This document shows, in pieces, positions 2,140 to 18,447 of a DNA stretch of 64,000 nucleotides. Under the pieces are notes generated by a model. The model was not told where the DNA came from. It ran no database searches and saw only the letters and a list, made by a program, of their open reading frames with translations. A program made the position numbers and the translations under genes. The stretch lies in the NCBI RefSeq assembly GCF_050920415.1, contig NZ_CP169309.1; one strand, given 5' to 3'. The DNA comes from Escherichia coli. GTDB taxonomy: Bacteria > Pseudomonadota > Gammaproteobacteria > Enterobacterales > Enterobacteriaceae. Numbering within the stretch: the stretch's first letter is position 1; every line of letters starts with the position of its first letter.

Positions 2140-3567
2140 CTAGCGCGACTGCTGATTATATTCATCATCGCGTTGATAAGCTTCATCATTCGGCTGCTCC
2201 GGTACCGACCGCAGTCGATACTCTTCATCCTGGCTCACCGCTTGTTCAGCCAAATCCGGATTAATCTCGCGTTTAATTTCTACTCCTAAACCGCGAAACG
2301 CTTCTGCTTGCGCCAGCACATTTCCGCGACCTGAAGAGAGTTTTTTCATTGCCTGGCGATAGTTATCCTGCGCTTTGTCGAGACTTTGACCAATCGCGGA
2401 CATATCATCGACAAACAAGCGCATTTTGTCGTACAACTTGCTGGCACGATCGGCTATTTTCTGAGCGTTGCGGCTTTGATGCTCATAGCGCCAGAGGTTG
2501 GCGATAGTGCGCAGCGCCACCAGCAGCGTGGTCGGGCTAACCAGCATGATATTGTTTTTCAACGCTTCGGTGATCAGCTCCGGCTGGCGGTCAAGCGCCA
2601 GTAAAAATGCGGGCTCAACAGGGATAAACATCAGCACGTAATCCAGGGTTCGTAGCCCCGGCAGCTGTTGATAATCTTTACGTCCCAGCAAGCGGATGTG
2701 GTTACGCACCGACGCGATATGTTCCTGTAGCGAGCTTTCGCGGGTGTAGTCGTCTTCTGCGTTGAAATAGCGTTCATAGGCGACCAGCGTCATTTTGGCG
2801 TCGATCACCACATCTTTTCCGTGCGGCAACCGCACGATGACATCCGGCTGCATCCGCGAGCGGGCGTCATTTTCGATGCTGACCTGGGTTTCATATTCAT
2901 ACCCTTCACGCAGACCGGAAGCCTCCAGCACACGCGTCAATACTACCTCGCCCCAGTTGCCCTGGGTTTTATTGTCGCCTTTCAGCGCACGCGTCAGGTT
3001 GATCGCTTCCTGGGCCATTTGCGCGTTGAGCTGCTGGAGATTGCGTATTTCGTGAGTCAGGGTATGGCGTTCTTGTGCTTCTTTACCGAAACTGTCCTGA
3101 ACCTGACGACGAAAATCGTCCAGTTGTTCACGTAGTGGCGACAACAGGCTGTTCAGACTCTGACGGTTTTGCTCATCAACCCGGCGATTGCTGTGCTCGA
3201 AAATACGGTTGGCGAGGTTTTCAAACTGCTCACTGAGGCGCTGTTCGCTGTTGATCATTTGGCGAATTTTATCGTCAGCATGTTGCTGTACAGCCTCCAT
3301 TCGCGTGGTGACTTCACGCAGATCCGCCTCCAGCGAGGTGTTAATGCTTTGCAGACTGCGCACTTCATTATTGAGTAACTCGCACTCAGCACGCCAATGT
3401 TCGCTTTGGGTAATTTGTTGTTTTGCCGCACTTAACTCCGCGACCATCTCTTCACGTTCAGCGAATTGCTCGGCTTTTTGCTGCGCATGCTGATAACTGG
3501 CAATCAGCCAGCCAATCGCCACGCTCACCAACGCAATAACTGCGTAAACCATGATTGAGATATCCAC
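2140..3567 (-). CDS. rmuC: RmuC DNA recombination protein, 475 aa from GTG
   Basis: Track frame 2140..3660; GGAGG 4 nt before GTG at 3565-3567 (VDISIMVYAVIAL...), which matches the 475-aa length I recall for RmuC; ATG five codons downstream is the alternative start. Confidence 0.85.
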   Translation of the reverse strand: MDISIMVYAVIALVSVAIGWLIASYQHAQQKAEQFAEREEMVAELSAAKQQITQSEHWRAECELLNNEVRSLQSINTSLEADLREVTTRMEAVQQHADDKIRQMINSEQRLSEQFENLANRIFEHSNRRVDEQNRQSLNSLLSPLREQLDDFRRQVQDSFGKEAQERHTLTHEIRNLQQLNAQMAQEAINLTRALKGDNKTQGNWGEVVLTRVLEASGLREGYEYETQVSIENDARSRMQPDVIVRLPHGKDVVIDAKMTLVAYERYFNAEDDYTRESSLQEHIASVRNHIRLLGRKDYQQLPGLRTLDYVLMFIPVEPAFLLALDRQPELITEALKNNIMLVSPTTLLVALRTIANLWRYEHQSRNAQKIADRASKLYDKMRLFVDDMSAIGQSLDKAQDNYRQAMKKLSSGRGNVLAQAEAFRGLGVEIKREINPDLAEQAVSQDEEYRLRSVPEQPNDEAYQRDDEYNQQSR

Positions 3568-3779: not shown

Positions 3780-4550
3780 CGTATGGCAGATACCTCTTCA
3801 ACCACCGCTGGCGCACAAACGTTATTACGCGGGCTGGCGGTTCTTAATGCTGTTTATAACGGCTGCCATGACCTGAAAAGTATCGGCGAGTTCACCGGCA
3901 CGACCCGGAGCACAACCCATCGTTTAGTCACCGTTCTGGTGGAACAACGCTACCTGCGCCACGTCCCAACGCAGGGCTACCAACTGGGCGCCAAACTGAT
4001 CGAATTCGGTGCCAGAGCGCTGGAAAGCACCTCGCTGTACGAAGTTGCGCTGCCCGTTTTGCAACGCCTTGCCCGTTACACCCTGGACACCGTGCATCTG
4101 GGGATCGTTGAAGGCGACGAAGTGCTGTATCTGGAGAAGATCAACAGCCAGCGCGGGCTGGAAATGCGCTCACGCCCAGGCCATCGCATGCCACTGGCAA
4201 TCACCGGCATCGGCAAGGCATTGATCCTCAACCGAACAGAAGAAGAGTGGCGCACGCTGTTTAAGACCTGTGGTGATGAAACAAAACTGGGCGCATTTAT
4301 TCAGAACATGCGTCGTTATGCCGCCAGTGGTTTTGCTTTTGATCTGGAAGAGAACGAGCCGACTATCCGTTGCGTTGCAGCGCCGGTTTACAACGCCCGG
4401 GATGAAATTGTGGCGGCTATTTCTGTCGCCAGTACCACTACGTATATGTCACTGGCGCGTCTGGAAGAACTGGCACCTTACGTCAAATCCTGTGCAGAAG
4501 AGATATCCGCTGAACTGGGCTGGGGTAAGCACGTTCACAAAAATAAATAA
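3780..4550 (+). CDS. IclR-family transcriptional regulator, 256 aa
   Basis: Track frame 3696..4550; start set at ATG 3780 (MADTSSTTAGAQTLLRGLAVLNAV...) with AGGAG 6 nt upstream; N-terminal HTH then effector domain typical of IclR/KdgR-type regulators. Confidence 0.8.
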   Translation, partial: RMADTSSTTAGAQTLLRGLAVLNAVYNGCHDLKSIGEFTGTTRSTTHRLVTVLVEQRYLRHVPTQGYQLGAKLIEFGARALESTSLYEVALPVLQRLARYTLDTVHLGIVEGDEVLYLEKINSQRGLEMRSRPGHRMPLAITGIGKALILNRTEEEWRTLFKTCGDETKLGAFIQNMRRYAASGFAFDLEENEPTIRCVAAPVYNARDEIVAAISVASTTTYMSLARLEELAPYVKSCAEEISAELGWGKHVHKNK

Positions 4551-4573
4551 ACCATGACTAAAGGAAACGGCTA

Positions 4574-5578
4574 ATGTCGGGAAACACCTCATTTATTGCC
4601 CTGGACTGGGGAACGTCATCGCTTCGGGCATGGCGTTTTGGCGACTCACCCAATCCACAAGAAAAACGTGAATTCCCGTGGGGGATCATGAAATTACCCT
4701 CCCAGGCAGCAACACGTGAGGACGCTTTCCACGATACGTTTTTACGTGTCTGCGGCGACTGGCTGGCACAATCCCCATGCCCGATTCTGGCTTGCGGCAT
4801 GATCGGCAGTGCGCAAGGGTGGCAACCCGCAGCTTATTTACCTTGCCCGGTCACTCTCGAGGGTCTGGCAAAGCAGTTGACGCCTGTTATCTACCAGCAG
4901 CAGACAATGCTGCACATCATTCCCGGCGTGATTAAAGAAGGTGAAATGCCCGAAGTGATGCGTGGCGAAGAGACACAAATCTTCGGTGCTATCTCGATGG
5001 AACCGGCCCTGCAAAACGCGCTCCGCCAGGGTATGCCTGTGCTGATTGGCTTACCTGGCACACATGCGAAATGGGCGGTAGTTGAAAACAACACCATTAC
5101 CGATTTTCGAACCTTTATGACAGGCGAGTTATTTGATGTTTTATCCCGCCATTCGATTCTCGGTGCCACCATGCGTTCGGGAGATGAACCGCACTGGGAT
5201 GCCTTCGCCCACGGGCTGACAGCGGCACAAGAGCATCATCAGACCGGATTATTATCGACGCTGTTTTCGACCCGTTCGCGCCTGCTGACCAGTAATCTTA
5301 CGCCGTCCTCACAGGGGGATTACCTTTCAGGATTACTGATAGGCCATGAATTATGCGGTCTGGCATCCAGTTTGCTACGTGATTTACCCGCCACAACACC
5401 GATCGCCTTAATCGGTAGCGCCACTCTGAACAGCCGCTATTCACAAGCATTCAGCCACGTTTTTCCCGACAGACAGCTACACGCCATTCCTAATGCCACT
5501 GAACAGGGGTTATGGCGAATCGCCCACGCTGCCGGGCTACTCTCCACCAACGCCAGGGAATGTACTCATGCCATTTAA
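4574..5578 (+). CDS. 2-dehydro-3-deoxygalactonokinase (DgoK)-family sugar-acid kinase, 334 aa
   Basis: MSGNTSFIALDWGTSSLRAW..., ...MRGEETQIFGA..., ...FRTFMTGELFD... align with my recollection of E. coli DgoK; about 40 aa longer at C-terminus. Confidence 0.75.
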   Translation: MSGNTSFIALDWGTSSLRAWRFGDSPNPQEKREFPWGIMKLPSQAATREDAFHDTFLRVCGDWLAQSPCPILACGMIGSAQGWQPAAYLPCPVTLEGLAKQLTPVIYQQQTMLHIIPGVIKEGEMPEVMRGEETQIFGAISMEPALQNALRQGMPVLIGLPGTHAKWAVVENNTITDFRTFMTGELFDVLSRHSILGATMRSGDEPHWDAFAHGLTAAQEHHQTGLLSTLFSTRSRLLTSNLTPSSQGDYLSGLLIGHELCGLASSLLRDLPATTPIALIGSATLNSRYSQAFSHVFPDRQLHAIPNATEQGLWRIAHAAGLLSTNARECTHAI

Positions 5579-13333: not shown

Positions 13334-15595
13334 TCATCCCCGACGCAAATTCTGCGCCGCCTGCACCATGTTCGCCAGTGCCGCGCGGGTTTCTGGCCAG
13401 CCGCGCGTTTTCAGGCCACAGTCCGGGTTGACCCACAGACGCTCTGCCGGAATGCGTTGTGCCGCTTTCTTCAGCAGGGACTCAATCCATTCCACGCTCG
13501 GTACGTTTGGCGAGTGAATGTCATAGACGCCAGGACCGATTTCATTCGGATAATCAAACTCTTCAAACGACTCCAGCAACTCCATGTCGGAACGCGAGGT
13601 TTCGATTGTGATGACGTCAGCATCCAGCGCCGCAATCGAATCCATGATGTCGTTGAACTCGCAGTAACACATGTGAGTGTGGATTTGCGTGTCATCTTTC
13701 GCTACGGCAGCGTTGATACGGAAAGCCTCCACGCCCCACTGGAGATAGGCATCCCAGTCGCTGCGACGCAGCGGTAAACCTTCGCGTAGCGCCGGTTCAT
13801 CAATCTGGATGATGCCAATTCCAGCGGCTTCCAGATCGGCCACTTCATCACGAAGCGCCAGCGCAATTTGTTTGGCGATGGTTTCACGGCTGACATCTTC
13901 ACGCGGGAACGACCAGCAGAGAATGGTCACCGGGCCAGTCAGCATCCCTTTCACCGGTTTATCAGTCAGAGATTGCGCATACTTCGCCCACTCCACGGTA
14001 ATCGGTGCCGGGCGGCTAACGTCACCAATAACAATCGGTGGCTTCACGCAGCGGGAACCGTAGCTCTGTACCCAACCGTTTTGCGTAAAGACAAAGCCAT
14101 CCAGGTGCTCGCCAAAGTATTCCACCATGTCATTACGCTCGGCCTCACCATGCACCAGCACATCCAGACCCAGACGTTCCTGCTCAACAATGGCCTGCTT
14201 GATATGTTCTGCAATGCCCGTGCGGTAGTTGTTGGCGTCGAGATTACCCTTTTTGAAATCCAGACGCAGGGTACGGATTTCTGTGGTTTGCGGGAAAGAG
14301 CCAATCGTGGTGGTCGGCCAGGCTGGCAGTTTAAAACGCGCACGCTGGGCTTCAGCACGCACTTCATAAACGTTCGCACGCTGGCTGTCCTGGGCTGTGA
14401 TCGCTGCCAGACGTTTTTCTACCGCCGGATTATGGACGCGGGTTGAGTGACGACGCGCCTGAATCGGAGCGCTCCACTCTGCCAGAGCTGCCGTGTCACC
14501 ACTGTTCAACGCATCGCGCAGCAGCGCCAGTTCATGGCATTTTTGCAGGGCGAAGGCAAACCAGCTTTTCACTTCCGCATCAAGACGCGTTTCCACACTC
14601 AGGTCGATAGGGCTGTGCAGCAATGAGCAGGAAGATGCCACCCACAAATCACGTTTGCCGACAATGTCCTTAATTTGCGCATATTTCTCGGTAAGATCGG
14701 CGCGCCAGACGTTACGACCATTGATAAGACCCGCAGACAGCAGCCAGTCAGAAGGCAGACGCTTGTGCAGTTCAGCAACGTCATCTTTACCATGTACGAG
14801 ATCGACATGCAGCCCCTGAACAGGCAGCGCAGTAATGGTGTCGAGGTTTGGCGTTACGCCTTCAAAATAGGTGGTCAGCAGCAGTTTCACCTGGCCCTGG
14901 AGCGCGTCGTAAGCGGGTTTATAGGCGTCCAGCCACGCCTGCGGCAGTTCCAGTACCAGAGCCGGTTCGTCGATCTGTACCCACTCAATGCCGCGTTTTG
15001 CCAGTTCTGCCAACACTTGCTGATAAACCGGCAGAATGTCGTTTAGCAGGCTCAGGCGATCAAACTGTTCACCTTTCACTTTACCCAGCCACAGGTAGGT
15101 AACCGGCCCCAGCAGCACGGGCTTGACCTTGTGGCCCAGCGCCAGCGCCTCGTCCACTTCCTCCAGCAGTTGCGTCCAGGTCAGTTTGAACTGTTGGCCT
15201 TTAACGAACTCCGGCACCATGTAGTGATAGTTGGTGTTAAACCATTTGGTCATTTCCGCTGCCGCCGCAGGTTCACCAGTCGGTGCACGTCCACGACCAA
15301 TACGGAACAGGGTGTCGATATCTACCGAACCATCTTTGTTCTGGTGACGCGCCGGAACGTTACCCAGCAGCAGGCTGGTGGTCAGGACATGATCGTACCA
15401 GGCAAAATCGCCCACCGGCAGCAGGTCGATACCTGCTTGCTTTTGTTGATCCCAGTGACGGGCACGTAATTCACGCCCAACCGCCAGCAGTTCTTCACGC
15501 GTGGAGTTCCCCGCCCAATAACTCTCTTGCGCTTTTTTCAGCTCGCGACGCAGGCCAACGCGAGGGAAACCGAGGGTGTGATTCAATATTGTCAT
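13334..15595 (-). CDS. metE: Cobalamin-independent methionine synthase, 753 aa
   Basis: [29 protein letters not shown]... full-length. Confidence 0.95.
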
Positions 15596-15830
15596 TTTTC
15601 TTCCTCTAATTATATGTAAATCCTATGGATTTTGAATTTAGGGAAGGCGGCAAGTTTATTCATCCCCGGGAGCTTACTGAAGTAAGTGACCGGGGTGAAG
15701 AAACGCAGCCAACGCACCATAAATTTAAAAGACGAAGGATTTTAGCCGTCCAGATGTTTACACATCCATAATTGGCGGTTACTGTATATTCCTCAAGCGC
15801 AAATTATTCATGCCGAAGTGAAGGACTTTC
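15596..15830. promoter_or_regulatory. metE-metR divergent control region with tandem MetJ-box-like octamers
   Basis: AGCCGTCC AGATGTTT ACACATCC at about 15744-15767 resemble AGACGTCT met boxes; palindromic cttacTGAAgtaag nearby may be a MetR site. Confidence 0.45.
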
Positions 15831-16784
15831 ATGATCGAAGTAAAACACCTGAAAACGCTACAAGCGTTGCGGAACTGCGGCTCACTCGCAGCCGCTGCGG
15901 CGACGTTGCATCAAACGCAATCCGCCCTGTCTCACCAGTTTAGCGATCTGGAACAACGCCTTGGCTTCCGGCTATTTGTGCGTAAAAGCCAGCCGCTTCG
16001 GTTTACACCGCAGGGAGAAATCCTGTTGCAACTGGCGAATCAGGTGCTGCCGCAAATCAGCCAGGCACTGCAAGCCTGCAATGAACCGCAGCAGACGCGC
16101 CTGCGCATTGCCATTGAGTGCCATAGCTGTATTCAGTGGCTGACGCCCGCGTTAGAAAATTTCCATAAGAACTGGCCGCAGGTGGAGATGGATTTTAAAT
16201 CGGGCGTGACGTTTGACCCGCAGCCCGCGTTGCAGCAGGGTGAGCTGGATCTGGTGATGACCTCCGATATTCTGCCGCGCAGTGGCCTGCATTATTCGCC
16301 GATGTTCGATTATGAAGTGCGTCTGGTGTTAGCGCCTGACCATCCACTGGCGGCGAAAACGCGAATCACGCCGGAAGACCTCGCCAGCGAAACGCTGTTG
16401 ATTTATCCGGTGCAGCGTAGCCGACTGGATGTCTGGCGGCATTTTCTTCAGCCCGCAGGCGTTAGCCCGTCACTGAAAAGCGTCGATAACACCTTGTTGT
16501 TGATTCAGATGGTTGCCGCACGGATGGGCATCGCTGCGCTACCGCACTGGGTGGTGGAGAGTTTTGAACGCCAGGGTCTGGTGGTCACCAAAACCTTGGG
16601 CGAAGGCTTGTGGAGCCGACTGTACGCCGCCGTGCGCGATGGCGAGCAGCGTCAGCCGATTACAGAAGCGTTTATTCGTTCAGCGCGCAATCACGCCTGC
16701 GATCATCTGCCGTTTGTGAAGAGCGCGGAGCGACCCACTTACGATGCACCCACAGTGAGGCCAGGATCACCAGCGCGCCTGTAA
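15831..16784 (+). CDS. metR: LysR-family regulator MetR, 317 aa
   Basis: [49 protein letters not shown]... Confidence 0.95.
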
Positions 16785-17571
16785 TAAACGTTGGCCAGTG
16801 CGGCTGTTGGTGCCAGATAGCCAGGTTAACCAGCAGCCCTGCCGGAACGTGCATATTATTCATAATGCCCAGCGTTCCGGCGTCCACCTGCGTCGCGCCG
16901 TAGTTCCACATAAAGTAGCCAATTCCGGAGGCCACCACGCCAAGAAACACCAGAATGCCCCATTGCAGCGTGGTTTGCGGCATTTTCTGCGCATTTCCCA
17001 GCAAAAACCATGCAATCACTGCCACCAGAAACGCGCCAAGATAGAACCACGCAAAGGCGTTATGCTGTGGCATCGGACGAGTTTCCATCAGGCGTTTGTA
17101 ACCCACCATGCCGATGGCAAAAGTGATATTGGAGAGTTGCACCAGCAGCAGGCCAGTCCAGAAGTGGTCGGTGACCTGATCATAGCGAATAATCCCGGCA
17201 CCAATCACCGCCAACAAGGCGCTAAAAGCATAGCCCCAGCGCAGACGGCGCTTACTCATGATGTCATAAATCAGCGTGATGTAGAGCGGAGTCAGTACGG
17301 TGAACAGCAACAGCTCGGAGACCGTCAGGTAGAGATAGGCGCGAAAACTCAGCATATACATCACGCCAAGCTGCATCGCGCCCACCAGCATATACAGGCC
17401 AACCGTTTTCAGGCTATTGCCACGGGTACGCAGAAACGGCAGAAACACGAGTGCCGCCAGGCCAACGCGCACCAGCACTGCAAAATAGCTATCGACGTGC
17501 CCCGCAAGGTACTCGCCATAAAAGCTAAAGGAGAAGGCCCACAGAATCGTGGTGATGATAAGTAGCGCCAC
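16672..17571 (-). CDS. yigM: YigM (BioP) EamA-family transporter, 299 aa
   Basis: [24 protein letters not shown]...; 3' end overlaps metR convergently. Confidence 0.9.
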
Positions 17572-17646
17572 AATGGAAAACTCTTTGATTAACGAGTATC
17601 CATTGTAGCGAAGTATCAGGTTGACAACTGACCAAATAAAGAACGA

Positions 17647-18447
17647 TTACGATAAATAGAGTTTACGCAGATAATGCGGCACTGCATCCTCGGCGTTAGT
17701 ACCAATCACTTCCAGCTCCGGATGCAGATCTTTCAGACGCTGGTGCGCACTGCCCATAATGCAGCCTTTACCTGCCATCGACAGCATTTCGGCGTCGTTC
17801 ATCCCGTCACCAAAGGCAATACAATCTTTCAGACTGTAGCCCAGTTTCTTCGCCACCGCTTCCAGGGCATGGCCTTTTGAAACGCCGCCCGCCATCACTT
17901 CCAGACAAGTTAGGGTAGAGAAACTGACGTTGACGCGATCGCCCCAACGAGCGTTGATTGCCTGCTCCAGCGGCAGCAGTTGTTCATGAGAATCACAGGT
18001 GAAGAACACTTTGCTGACGCCTTCCGGATCCAGTAATCCTGGCTCATACAGCGCATATTTGAACACCGCTTCTTTAAAAAAGCGCATCTCTTCCGGGCGG
18101 TGGCGATTCATAAACCATTCGTCGTCGCGATAAACGTTAGTAATGATGTCCGGGTTGTCGTTGACCACGCCAAACAGATCGCTGGCAATGTCGCGATCCA
18201 GGTTATGAGCAAAAATCAGATTGCCATCCAGATCGTGAACGCGCGCGCCATTGGAGGTAATCATGTAAGACTTAATCTCCAGATTATCGCGAATTTGCCC
18301 CACATCAACGTGGTGGCGACCGGTCGCAAACACAAAGTTAATGCCGCGCGCGGTGAGCAGCTTCAGAGTTTCTTTGGCGTAAGGGGATAACGTATGGTCG
18401 GGAGAAAGTAACGTGCCATCTAAATCAGACGCAACAACCTGGTACAT
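17647..18447 (-). CDS. yigL: YigL HAD-family sugar/pyridoxal phosphatase, 266 aa
   Basis: Track frame 17647..18573; start set at MYQVVASDLDGTLL..., 5 nt after pldB stop. Confidence 0.9.
   Translation of the reverse strand: MYQVVASDLDGTLLSPDHTLSPYAKETLKLLTARGINFVFATGRHHVDVGQIRDNLEIKSYMITSNGARVHDLDGNLIFAHNLDRDIASDLFGVVNDNPDIITNVYRDDEWFMNRHRPEEMRFFKEAVFKYALYEPGLLDPEGVSKVFFTCDSHEQLLPLEQAINARWGDRVNVSFSTLTCLEVMAGGVSKGHALEAVAKKLGYSLKDCIAFGDGMNDAEMLSMAGKGCIMGSAHQRLKDLHPELEVIGTNAEDAVPHYLRKLYLS

Follow-up and report, generated by a model that had tools for sequence, protein, structure and literature searches.

The convergent genes metR and yigM (bioP) of Escherichia coli share the last 113 nt of their coding regions. 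We analyzed this overlap in a window of 64,000 nt of E. coli DNA, to which all coordinates below refer unless stated otherwise. Most likely it is a genuine, structurally trivial and ancient tail-to-tail arrangement, in which the C-terminal ends of both proteins are free-riding tails and the 3' ends of both transcripts are made inside the open reading frame (ORF) of the partner. Within this otherwise known feature we found one modest new lead, a stem-loop located in metR and formed by the RNA of yigM.

In the window, metR codes on the plus strand for the LysR-type regulator MetR (15831..16784, 317 aa, ATG start) and yigM, also called bioP, codes on the minus strand for a biotin transporter of the EamA/DMT family (16672..17571, 299 aa, GTG start); both genes appear in the ORF list and in RefSeq. 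Their coding regions overlap on opposite strands at 16672..16784, i.e. over 113 nt with both stop codons included, and metR terminates in two tandem stops, TAA TAA (16782-16787). The frames are phased such that the first codon positions of metR face the first positions of yigM, the second positions face the third, and the third positions face the second. An overlap of this length had been claimed by the sequence-only reading, and it is borne out by the ORF list, by the RefSeq annotation of a 100%-identical strain (locus L001: metR 1732-2685, bioP 2573-3472; same overlap) and by MG1655 (NC_000913.3: bioP 4011076..4011975, metR c4011863..4012816), where it also spans 113 nt. MetR and YigM from the window each show 99.7% protein identity to their K-12 counterparts. 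The surrounding 2.2 kb (15600-17800) is matched in 5,425 of 5,426 complete E. coli genomes, with 100% identity only to strain MFDS1022581 and with ~96.5% DNA identity to most other E. coli; the window stems from a divergent lineage of the species.

The overlap as such is not new: it is annotated in K-12 and has been in print since 2016. Cote et al. (2016, mBio; PMC5120140) described a substantial overlap of yigM with metR and a metR deletion strain that resembles a yigM mutant, and they ascribed the biotin-related phenotype of this strain to the concomitant disruption of yigM. The window and K-12 (RefSeq NC_000913.3; PMC5120140) do not differ in this feature: the locus is the same, and so are the 113 nt. 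The metR/yigM pair is absent from a preprint that deals with long antiparallel ORFs.

According to Palleja et al. (2008, PMC2478687), most annotated prokaryotic overlaps longer than 60 nt are artefactual, and one could suspect that an error of annotation or sequencing conceals an earlier end of one of the two genes, with no true overlap. However, the same authors find real long cases among convergent overlaps only, and gene ends, as opposed to gene starts, do not have to be predicted but are fixed by stop codons. All 81 sequences carry the yigM stop unchanged, and 74 of them have the metR stop at one and the same codon; curated models are matched at full length; and at least 80% of the 2.2-kb overlap region is present in 5,422 of the 5,426 complete E. 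coli genomes. These conservation data already refute an artefact, to which we assign practically no probability.

The assignment of both proteins agrees with profile and structure comparisons. MetR matches the NCBIfam equivalog NF011950 over residues 1-317 of 317 (741.3 bits, cut-off 382) and contains the Pfam domains HTH_1 (residues 5-63) and LysR_substrate (residues 86-288). Its residues 1-92 are identical to the E. coli MetR structure 5FO5 in the PDB, and the alignment to the solved regulatory domain of a MetR-like protein from Neisseria (4AB5) ends at residue 296. The gene is divergent from metE (13334..15595, minus strand; metR starts at 15831, plus strand), and the same order is found in all outgroup loci. 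YigM matches TIGR00950 (309.9 bits, cut-off 230.2) with the match ending at residue 273, and Pfam EamA in two stretches, the last of which ends at residue 275; alignments with distant homologs stop at query residues ~275-286. The high-affinity uptake of biotin by YigM/BioP is known from the literature on the K-12 ortholog, including Cote et al. (PMC5120140).

Comparison of genomes indicates that the metR-yigM overlap is anciently conserved and not a chance feature of one genome. A scan of Enterobacteriaceae with one genome per species returned 80 loci: the overlap measures 113 nt in 70 of them, 116 nt in six (where the first of the tandem TAA TAA stops is mutated), 98 nt in two and 68 nt in one, and in one further locus the metR match is disrupted. 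In 81 of 81 Enterobacteriaceae sequences compared, the starts of metR and yigM are exactly 1741 nt apart, with no indel, and Yersinia is also free of indels. The lengths of the orthologs agree, with 299 aa for YigM and 317 aa for MetR in most of the 80 species; by this criterion of Palleja et al. (2008), neither gene has been extended at its 3' end through a frameshift or the loss of a stop in a single genome. For the other lineages, the family assignments were checked against the taxonomy. Yersinia shows the identical geometry (113 nt), and shorter overlaps occur in Pectobacterium (95 nt), Sodalis (95 nt) and a Dickeya-like metagenomic contig (98 nt). The genes are separated in Serratia (36-nt gap), in Gibbsiella (327-nt gap filled with repeats) and in Erwinia (Winslowiella) toletana, where a DUF1456 gene lies between them.

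Because homology can still be recognised among the YigM tails of the overlap lineages (e.g. VKRPLQTVSAHRRADAPNE), the parsimonious reading would be a single origin of the overlap followed by two losses. The direction of evolution is read, for a few lineages outside Enterobacteriaceae, from parsimony and the homology of the tails, and the separated lineages stand for two independent events only, one of them probably shared by Serratia and Gibbsiella. We also considered distant YigM homologs (at most 51% identity) as representatives of the state before the overlap and dropped them: none of the five that were looked up adjoins metR, and their genomic contexts are unrelated.

Long convergent overlaps have been described before. 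The cases of Rogozin et al. (2002), as they are summarized by Palleja et al. (PMC2478687), likewise exceed 60 nt and involve two well-characterized genes; in the same summary their ends are set by stop codons, the lengths of the genes are like those of the orthologs, and the simplest origin is the loss of a stop codon or of a spacer, all of which applies to metR/yigM as well. Palleja et al. list 54 candidate real overlaps in 338 genomes, most of which are kept among very close species only. In contrast, the geometry of metR/yigM is identical across Enterobacteriaceae and Yersinia, and the overlap persists in a shortened form in Pectobacteriaceae and Sodalis.

Closer inspection suggests that the overlap is composed of two unconstrained C-terminal tails, each of which runs antisense through the conserved end of the partner protein. 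The column entropies at the two informative positions are 0.54 and 0.46 bits in the overlap, compared to 0.10 and 0.98 bits in the metR-only part and 1.05 and 0.13 bits in the yigM-only part. Per-codon entropies reveal a hand-over of constraint from one gene to the other: from 16671 to ~16736, MetR residues 281-302 are almost invariant, with the variation confined to the synonymous position of metR, and YigM residues 283-298 wander; from ~16737 to 16784, conservation passes to YigM residues 265-282, which form the end of the last transmembrane helix (ASLWVHRxWVAP), and it is MetR residues 303-317 that wander. Constraint in both frames is limited to ~12 nt, and this doubly constrained core (16726..16737, both strands) places MetR A299-E300-R301-P302 opposite YigM W279-V280-A281-P282. 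The YigM tail (residues 283-299; 16675..16725, minus strand) varies only where the synonymous sites of metR permit it. The MetR tail (residues 303-317; 16737..16781, plus strand) is unconstrained in its own frame: the amino-acid entropy is 1.3-3.1 bits at many residues, the third codon position (position 2 of yigM) is invariant, and the variation falls on the second codon position, which is the synonymous third position of yigM. The sequence-only reading had named an earlier end of either gene as the finding that would speak against the overlap. In the literal sense neither gene ends earlier, both stops being conserved; in the functional sense both do, as the conserved parts end at about P302 in MetR and at about P282 in YigM.

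One could argue that both C-terminal extensions are needed and that the overlap is a true dual coding of useful peptides. This would agree with the highly conserved lengths of 299 aa and 317 aa, and with the presence of near-invariant residues such as R291 and E299 in YigM or P307 and S313 in MetR. However, each conserved residue of a tail faces a conserved codon of the partner, and it is precisely the synonymous sites of the partner that vary. In addition, three lineages lack the tails or carry unrelated sequence in their place: YigM from Serratia, Gibbsiella and Erwinia toletana has only 286-287 aa, ends 4-5 residues after the WVAP/WIIG motif and lacks the tail of the 299-aa protein, and MetR from these lineages ends 11-12 residues past an (A/G/S)R(P/A) motif aligned with E300-R301-P302, with an unrelated sequence in this stretch. 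Short alleles also occur naturally. YigM has 284-285 aa in locus L025 and in some Salmonella clusters, and MetR has 311-312 aa in two Enterobacteriaceae loci as well as in Pectobacterium, Sodalis and the Dickeya-like contig. We regard functional tails as very unlikely; the tails appear to be dispensable, although some of their conserved residues, which might have a function of their own, are confounded with the constraint on the partner. The growth of the Keio yigM deletion strain in mineral medium was also considered as an argument that MetR residues 288-317 are dispensable, and was rejected, as it hinges on the composition of the medium and on the exact end-points of the deletion.

The size of the overlap fits the reading in which the tails are free riders. 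The mean spacing of chance stops in the antisense frames is 16 codons for the metR frame and 30 codons for the yigM frame, and the tails have 15 and 17 codons, respectively; since the conserved cores abut, the length of the overlap is therefore about what chance predicts. Moreover, each gene has its stop codon opposite a conserved Phe-Ile codon pair of the partner, to which it is complementary. We propose that the ancestor from which Enterobacteriaceae, Yersiniaceae, Pectobacteriaceae and the Sodalis lineage descend lost the spacer between yigM and metR, presumably by a deletion. MetR and YigM would then have come to share ~12 nt at their conserved C-termini, and each frame would have run on, antisense to the other gene, to the first chance stop, adding 15 codons to MetR and 17 codons to YigM. 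From then on the overlap would have been frozen, with a constrained segment of the partner facing each tail, and with each stop being the complement of a Phe-Ile pair. In the lack of a spacer, the 3' ends of the transcripts would have to arise inside the ORF of the partner, where Rho could act on the C-rich antisense RNA, and in the case of yigM/bioP a hairpin in metR codons 262-277 would most likely shield the trimmed 3' end.

The sequence-only reading had also stated that neither gene can possess a conventional terminator outside the ORF of its partner. This agrees with our results, as the signals of the yigM strand described below, a hairpin and a Rho-dependent region from published data, are located within metR or antisense to it. 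A scan of 16300-17200 for intrinsic terminators (hairpin followed by a U-tract) returned one site, compared to 0.9 expected by chance; we discarded this candidate, which corresponds to the chance rate and lies in the wrong place, upstream of the metR stop. The RNA of the overlap is no more structured than shuffled sequences on either strand (z = +0.2 and +0.8). An Rfam scan of 15500-17800 yielded a single match, V_AS5 in the metE-metR spacer, which reaches 28.7 bits and stays below the gathering score of 96; we treat it as a chance hit. According to a composition scan, the RNA beyond each stop is C-rich on both strands, with C minus G of ~+0.12 over ~150 nt, and such untranslated C-rich antisense RNA past a stop would therefore be a natural substrate for Rho. 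On the yigM strand we delineated a candidate Rho-loading region at 16460..16615 (minus strand), which is C-rich and G-poor (C minus G ~+0.12), contains 14-16 YC dimers per 80 nt, and lies directly 3' of the hairpin described below.

Published data on Rho are available for the same strand. Adams et al. (2021) reported a region of Rho-dependent termination on the yigM strand at position 4011704 of MG1655, which corresponds to ~16943 in the window (Rho score 5.07, p = 1.3e-12); the position is approximate, having been obtained with windows of +/-800 nt, and the region is formally classed as internal to yigM. In untreated cells the DirectRNA-seq coverage goes from 98 upstream to 21 downstream of this region; in the presence of bicyclomycin, the corresponding values are 300 and 326. 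These published data point to Rho-dependent termination on the bioP/yigM strand, located to within +/-800 nt. For the metR strand, no Rho region is reported by Adams et al. (2021); their Term-seq tables hold no entry for the 3' ends of metR or yigM, and the SMRT-Cappable-seq supplement has no entry for either gene.

Four segments had been chosen beforehand for folding, namely the overlap in both orientations and the ~130 nt that follow either stop on its 3' side, and only the two downstream segments stood out. The stronger signal comes from the yigM side (16550-16680, minus strand; z = -3.06) and is due to a GC-rich stem-loop of 17 bp without a U-tract, which we term hairpin 1 (16616..16659 in the yigM-sense RNA, minus strand). 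It occupies metR codons 262-277 and lies 13-56 nt 3' of the yigM stop. In a sliding scan across 76 species, hairpin 1 is the most stable 63-nt window of the whole 1741-nt unit. Its predicted energy of -25.4 kcal/mol compares with -16.0 +/- 3.4 kcal/mol for 2000 synonymous recodings of metR, 99% of which are less stable. The same tendency is seen in the family: 88% of the 81 Enterobacteriaceae sequences fall below the 5% quantile of the null distribution, despite near-saturated synonymous sites, and hairpin 1 is the strongest outlier among 67 metR windows (mean z of -2.1 vs -0.06 +/- 0.61). Among the non-Watson-Crick cells of the stem, read on the yigM-sense RNA, G.U combinations outnumber A.C combinations by 195 to 21, an excess which points to selection on the yigM-sense RNA and not on the metR mRNA or the DNA. 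Classical covariation is weak, with double-sided changes in 2 of 17 pairs and a score of 0.136 compared to 0.124 for shuffles. A second stem on the yigM strand (~16566-16600) is an outlier within Enterobacteriaceae as well; it is missing in every outgroup, and we do not claim it as a 3' structure of yigM.

The most telling result on hairpin 1 comes from the comparison of lineages, in which we determined the fraction of synonymous recodings that are at least as stable as the natural sequence. Where the genes overlap, this fraction is 0.000 in Pectobacterium, 0.001 in the Dickeya-like contig, 0.004 in Yersinia and 0.072, a marginal value, in Sodalis. Where they are separated, it amounts to 0.289 in Serratia, 0.668 in Gibbsiella and 0.957 in Erwinia toletana. 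The MetR peptide encoded at hairpin 1 is identical in Erwinia toletana and differs only at P276A in Serratia and Gibbsiella. Hairpin 1 thus seems to have been kept together with the overlap and to have decayed once the genes were separated, a pattern that comprises two separation events only.

[quoted passage not shown] Hairpin 1 resembles them in its stability, in the lack of a U-tract, in its C-rich 3' flank and in its location on a strand with reported sensitivity to bicyclomycin. It differs from them in that it sits in the coding sequence of a convergent gene and is built from the synonymous sites of metR. Because of this shared anatomy we propose hairpin 1 as a candidate protective 3' stem-loop of the bioP mRNA, an assignment with roughly even odds. 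The fuller proposition is that bioP draws a stabilizing 3' stem-loop, read on the opposite strand, from the synonymous positions of 16 codons of metR, that this stem-loop has been under selection in the four sampled families that bear the overlap (Enterobacteriaceae, Yersinia, Pectobacteriaceae and, marginally so, Sodalis), and that it decayed in those sampled lineages in which a spacer was regained; we consider this a real possibility, slightly short of an even chance.

The counterpart on the metR side is less convincing. Hairpin 2 (16802..16838 in the metR-sense RNA, plus strand) lies 18-54 nt 3' of the metR stop, opposite yigM codons ~245-257, and also lacks a U-tract. The segment that contains it (16775-16900, plus strand) folds with z = -2.42, and hairpin 2 is the second most stable window. 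Only 40% of the species beat the synonymous recodings (mean z of -0.88), and no conservation of hairpin 2 was found outside Enterobacteriaceae. It is a weak candidate for a 3' structure of metR, and in the end we rejected both hairpin 2 and another stem (16840-16884) in this role, as neither shows a significant gain over synonymous recodings.

The presence of a hairpin beyond each stop brings to mind a different mechanism, in which the flanking hairpins pause the polymerases and the 3' ends of both transcripts are set by head-on collisions and not by Rho. Bidirectional termination by collision was proposed for hundreds of convergent gene pairs of E. coli by Ju et al. (2019), as reported in bioRxiv 10.1101/2022.10.23.513370. 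As far as this report describes the class, metR/yigM resembles it in being a convergent pair with overlapping transcripts and with hairpins unlike intrinsic terminators. The model needs a hairpin without a U-tract where the transcripts overlap, and in the whole-unit scan of 76 species the most stable windows on the two strands coincide with hairpins 1 and 2; no conserved local structures of the 1.7-kb unit are more stable than these two, and each of them lies directly beyond a stop. However, the published class is, according to the same report, intergenic and Rho-independent, whereas the coding regions of metR and yigM overlap and the yigM strand is sensitive to bicyclomycin. Furthermore, hairpin 1 is situated on the metR strand 123 nt upstream of the metR stop (16782-16784), and a polymerase that paused and terminated there would leave metR truncated. 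Judging from the G.U asymmetry, selection acts on the RNA of one strand only, and hairpin 2 is not significantly selected. The model is also reported to work best with frequent trailing polymerases, and the lack of a curated 3' end for either gene may reflect low expression. We consider collision-driven termination unlikely, and favor 3' ends that are made by Rho inside the partner ORF and, for yigM, possibly protected by hairpin 1.

The sequence-only reading went further and suggested that the overlap allows transcriptional interference or antisense effects between methionine regulation and biotin uptake. In such a scenario, convergent transcription across the 113 nt would lead to interference or to mutual antisense RNAs, as in an excludon, so that transcription of metR, whether controlled by MetR or dependent on methionine, would modulate bioP or the reverse. 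An excludon is defined by a demonstrated long antisense transcript together with reciprocal expression of genes with opposing functions, a concept derived from the transcriptomics of Listeria. The likeness of metR/yigM to excludons and to other cis-antisense overlaps of 3' UTRs lies in neighboring genes with complementary transcripts and in the possibility of mutual repression; the difference is that the regulation of methionine and the uptake of biotin do not oppose each other. The two mRNAs are necessarily complementary over at least 113 nt, the arrangement has been kept across several families, and when Rho is inhibited the transcription of the yigM strand extends ~five-fold further into antisense metR. 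In untreated cells, however, Rho reduces the downstream antisense-metR signal to ~1/5, and the conservation of the arrangement is fully accounted for by the dual coding constraint. Serratia, Gibbsiella and Erwinia have split the two genes and yet retain both. Reciprocal expression is seen in no data, and a literature search found no report of an antisense transcript that alters the expression of metR or yigM. The absence of a curated Term-seq 3' end for either gene may mean low abundance, in which case collisions of polymerases would be rare. Finally, the phenotypic link between metR and yigM has been ascribed to physical truncation (PMC5120140). The suggested coupling thus finds no support: Rho curbs the read-through, three lineages have separated the genes, and the link in phenotype is the disruption of yigM. 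We consider a regulatory coupling of metR and bioP quite unlikely, and infer that it is absent.

The metR-yigM pair can be regarded as an unusually old and rigid case of a long convergent overlap, which would persist without a function of its own, its tails being locked in place by the constraint on the partner. Our results do not change the understanding of methionine or biotin biology. They do have a practical consequence, namely that neither gene can be cleanly deleted without harm to its partner, and the metR deletion strain of the literature is at the same time a mutant in biotin transport. If the proposed role of hairpin 1 is true, it would provide a clean natural case of a coding segment that encodes, in antisense, the terminator-proximal structure of a convergent neighbor, with a constraint that relaxes once the two genes are separated. 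If confirmed, hairpin 1 would show how a pair of genes without a spacer can obtain a defined mRNA 3' end.

The stop codons of metR and yigM show a symmetry at the two ends of their overlap (window 16671-16676 and 16782-16788), in which each stop lies complementary to a Phe-Ile codon pair (TTT ATT) that is conserved in the partner gene. The TAA of yigM falls within F281-I282 of MetR, and the tandem TAA TAA of metR falls within F262-I263 of YigM. Because each stop complements a conserved pair of the other gene, both are nearly fixed in place. Natural YigM alleles of 284-285 aa, without most of the C-terminal tail (residues 283-299), do occur, namely in the Salmonella protein clusters P0076 and P0077 (42 and 66 member sequences, respectively) and in one of the compared loci (L025, 3001-3855). 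In the complete genome of Leclercia adecarboxylata NCTC13032 (locus L067, about 4379-4699), the match to metR is limited to residues 17-114, pointing to a frameshift, some other disruption or an error in the assembly.

In the yigM-sense RNA we found a second stem-loop at window 16566-16600 (-), located 3' of the yigM stop at a distance of 70-105 nt, which is an outlier relative to synonymous recodings in Enterobacteriaceae (z = -1.5 to -1.9); it was looked for in the outgroups and found in none. Among the lineages in which yigM and metR are separated, Erwinia toletana carries a hairpin in the spacer just 3' of yigM (locus L094, 3866-3900; AGCGGAGCGG-GTAA-ACCGCTCCGCT) with a strong 10-bp stem, and Serratia carries one in the same place (locus L092, 3862-3897; GGGCCA…TGGCCC). 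In both, the 3' structure appears to have been relocated from metR into the spacer. The spacer of Gibbsiella (327 nt; locus L095, 3856-4195) is full of tandem copies of a palindromic repeat, GGGAGAGGG / TAGGGTGAGGG, which looks like a REP-like element.

Two further features of the region were noted. A mechanical ORF of 255 aa (window 16798-17565, +) lies antisense to nearly all of yigM and does not share the frame of metR; it probably arises from the codon composition that goes with encoding a membrane protein. The spacer between metE and metR gave a weak Rfam match to the Vibrio antisense RNA V_AS5 (window 15621-15739, +; 28.7 bits, where the gathering score is 96; E = 0.002), which we take as a chance match.

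Comparison of window 15600-17800 with 5,425 complete E. coli genomes revealed about 96.5% identity to most of them and 100% identity to one strain, MFDS1022581, from animal-source food in Korea. These identities place the window in a divergent lineage of E. coli.
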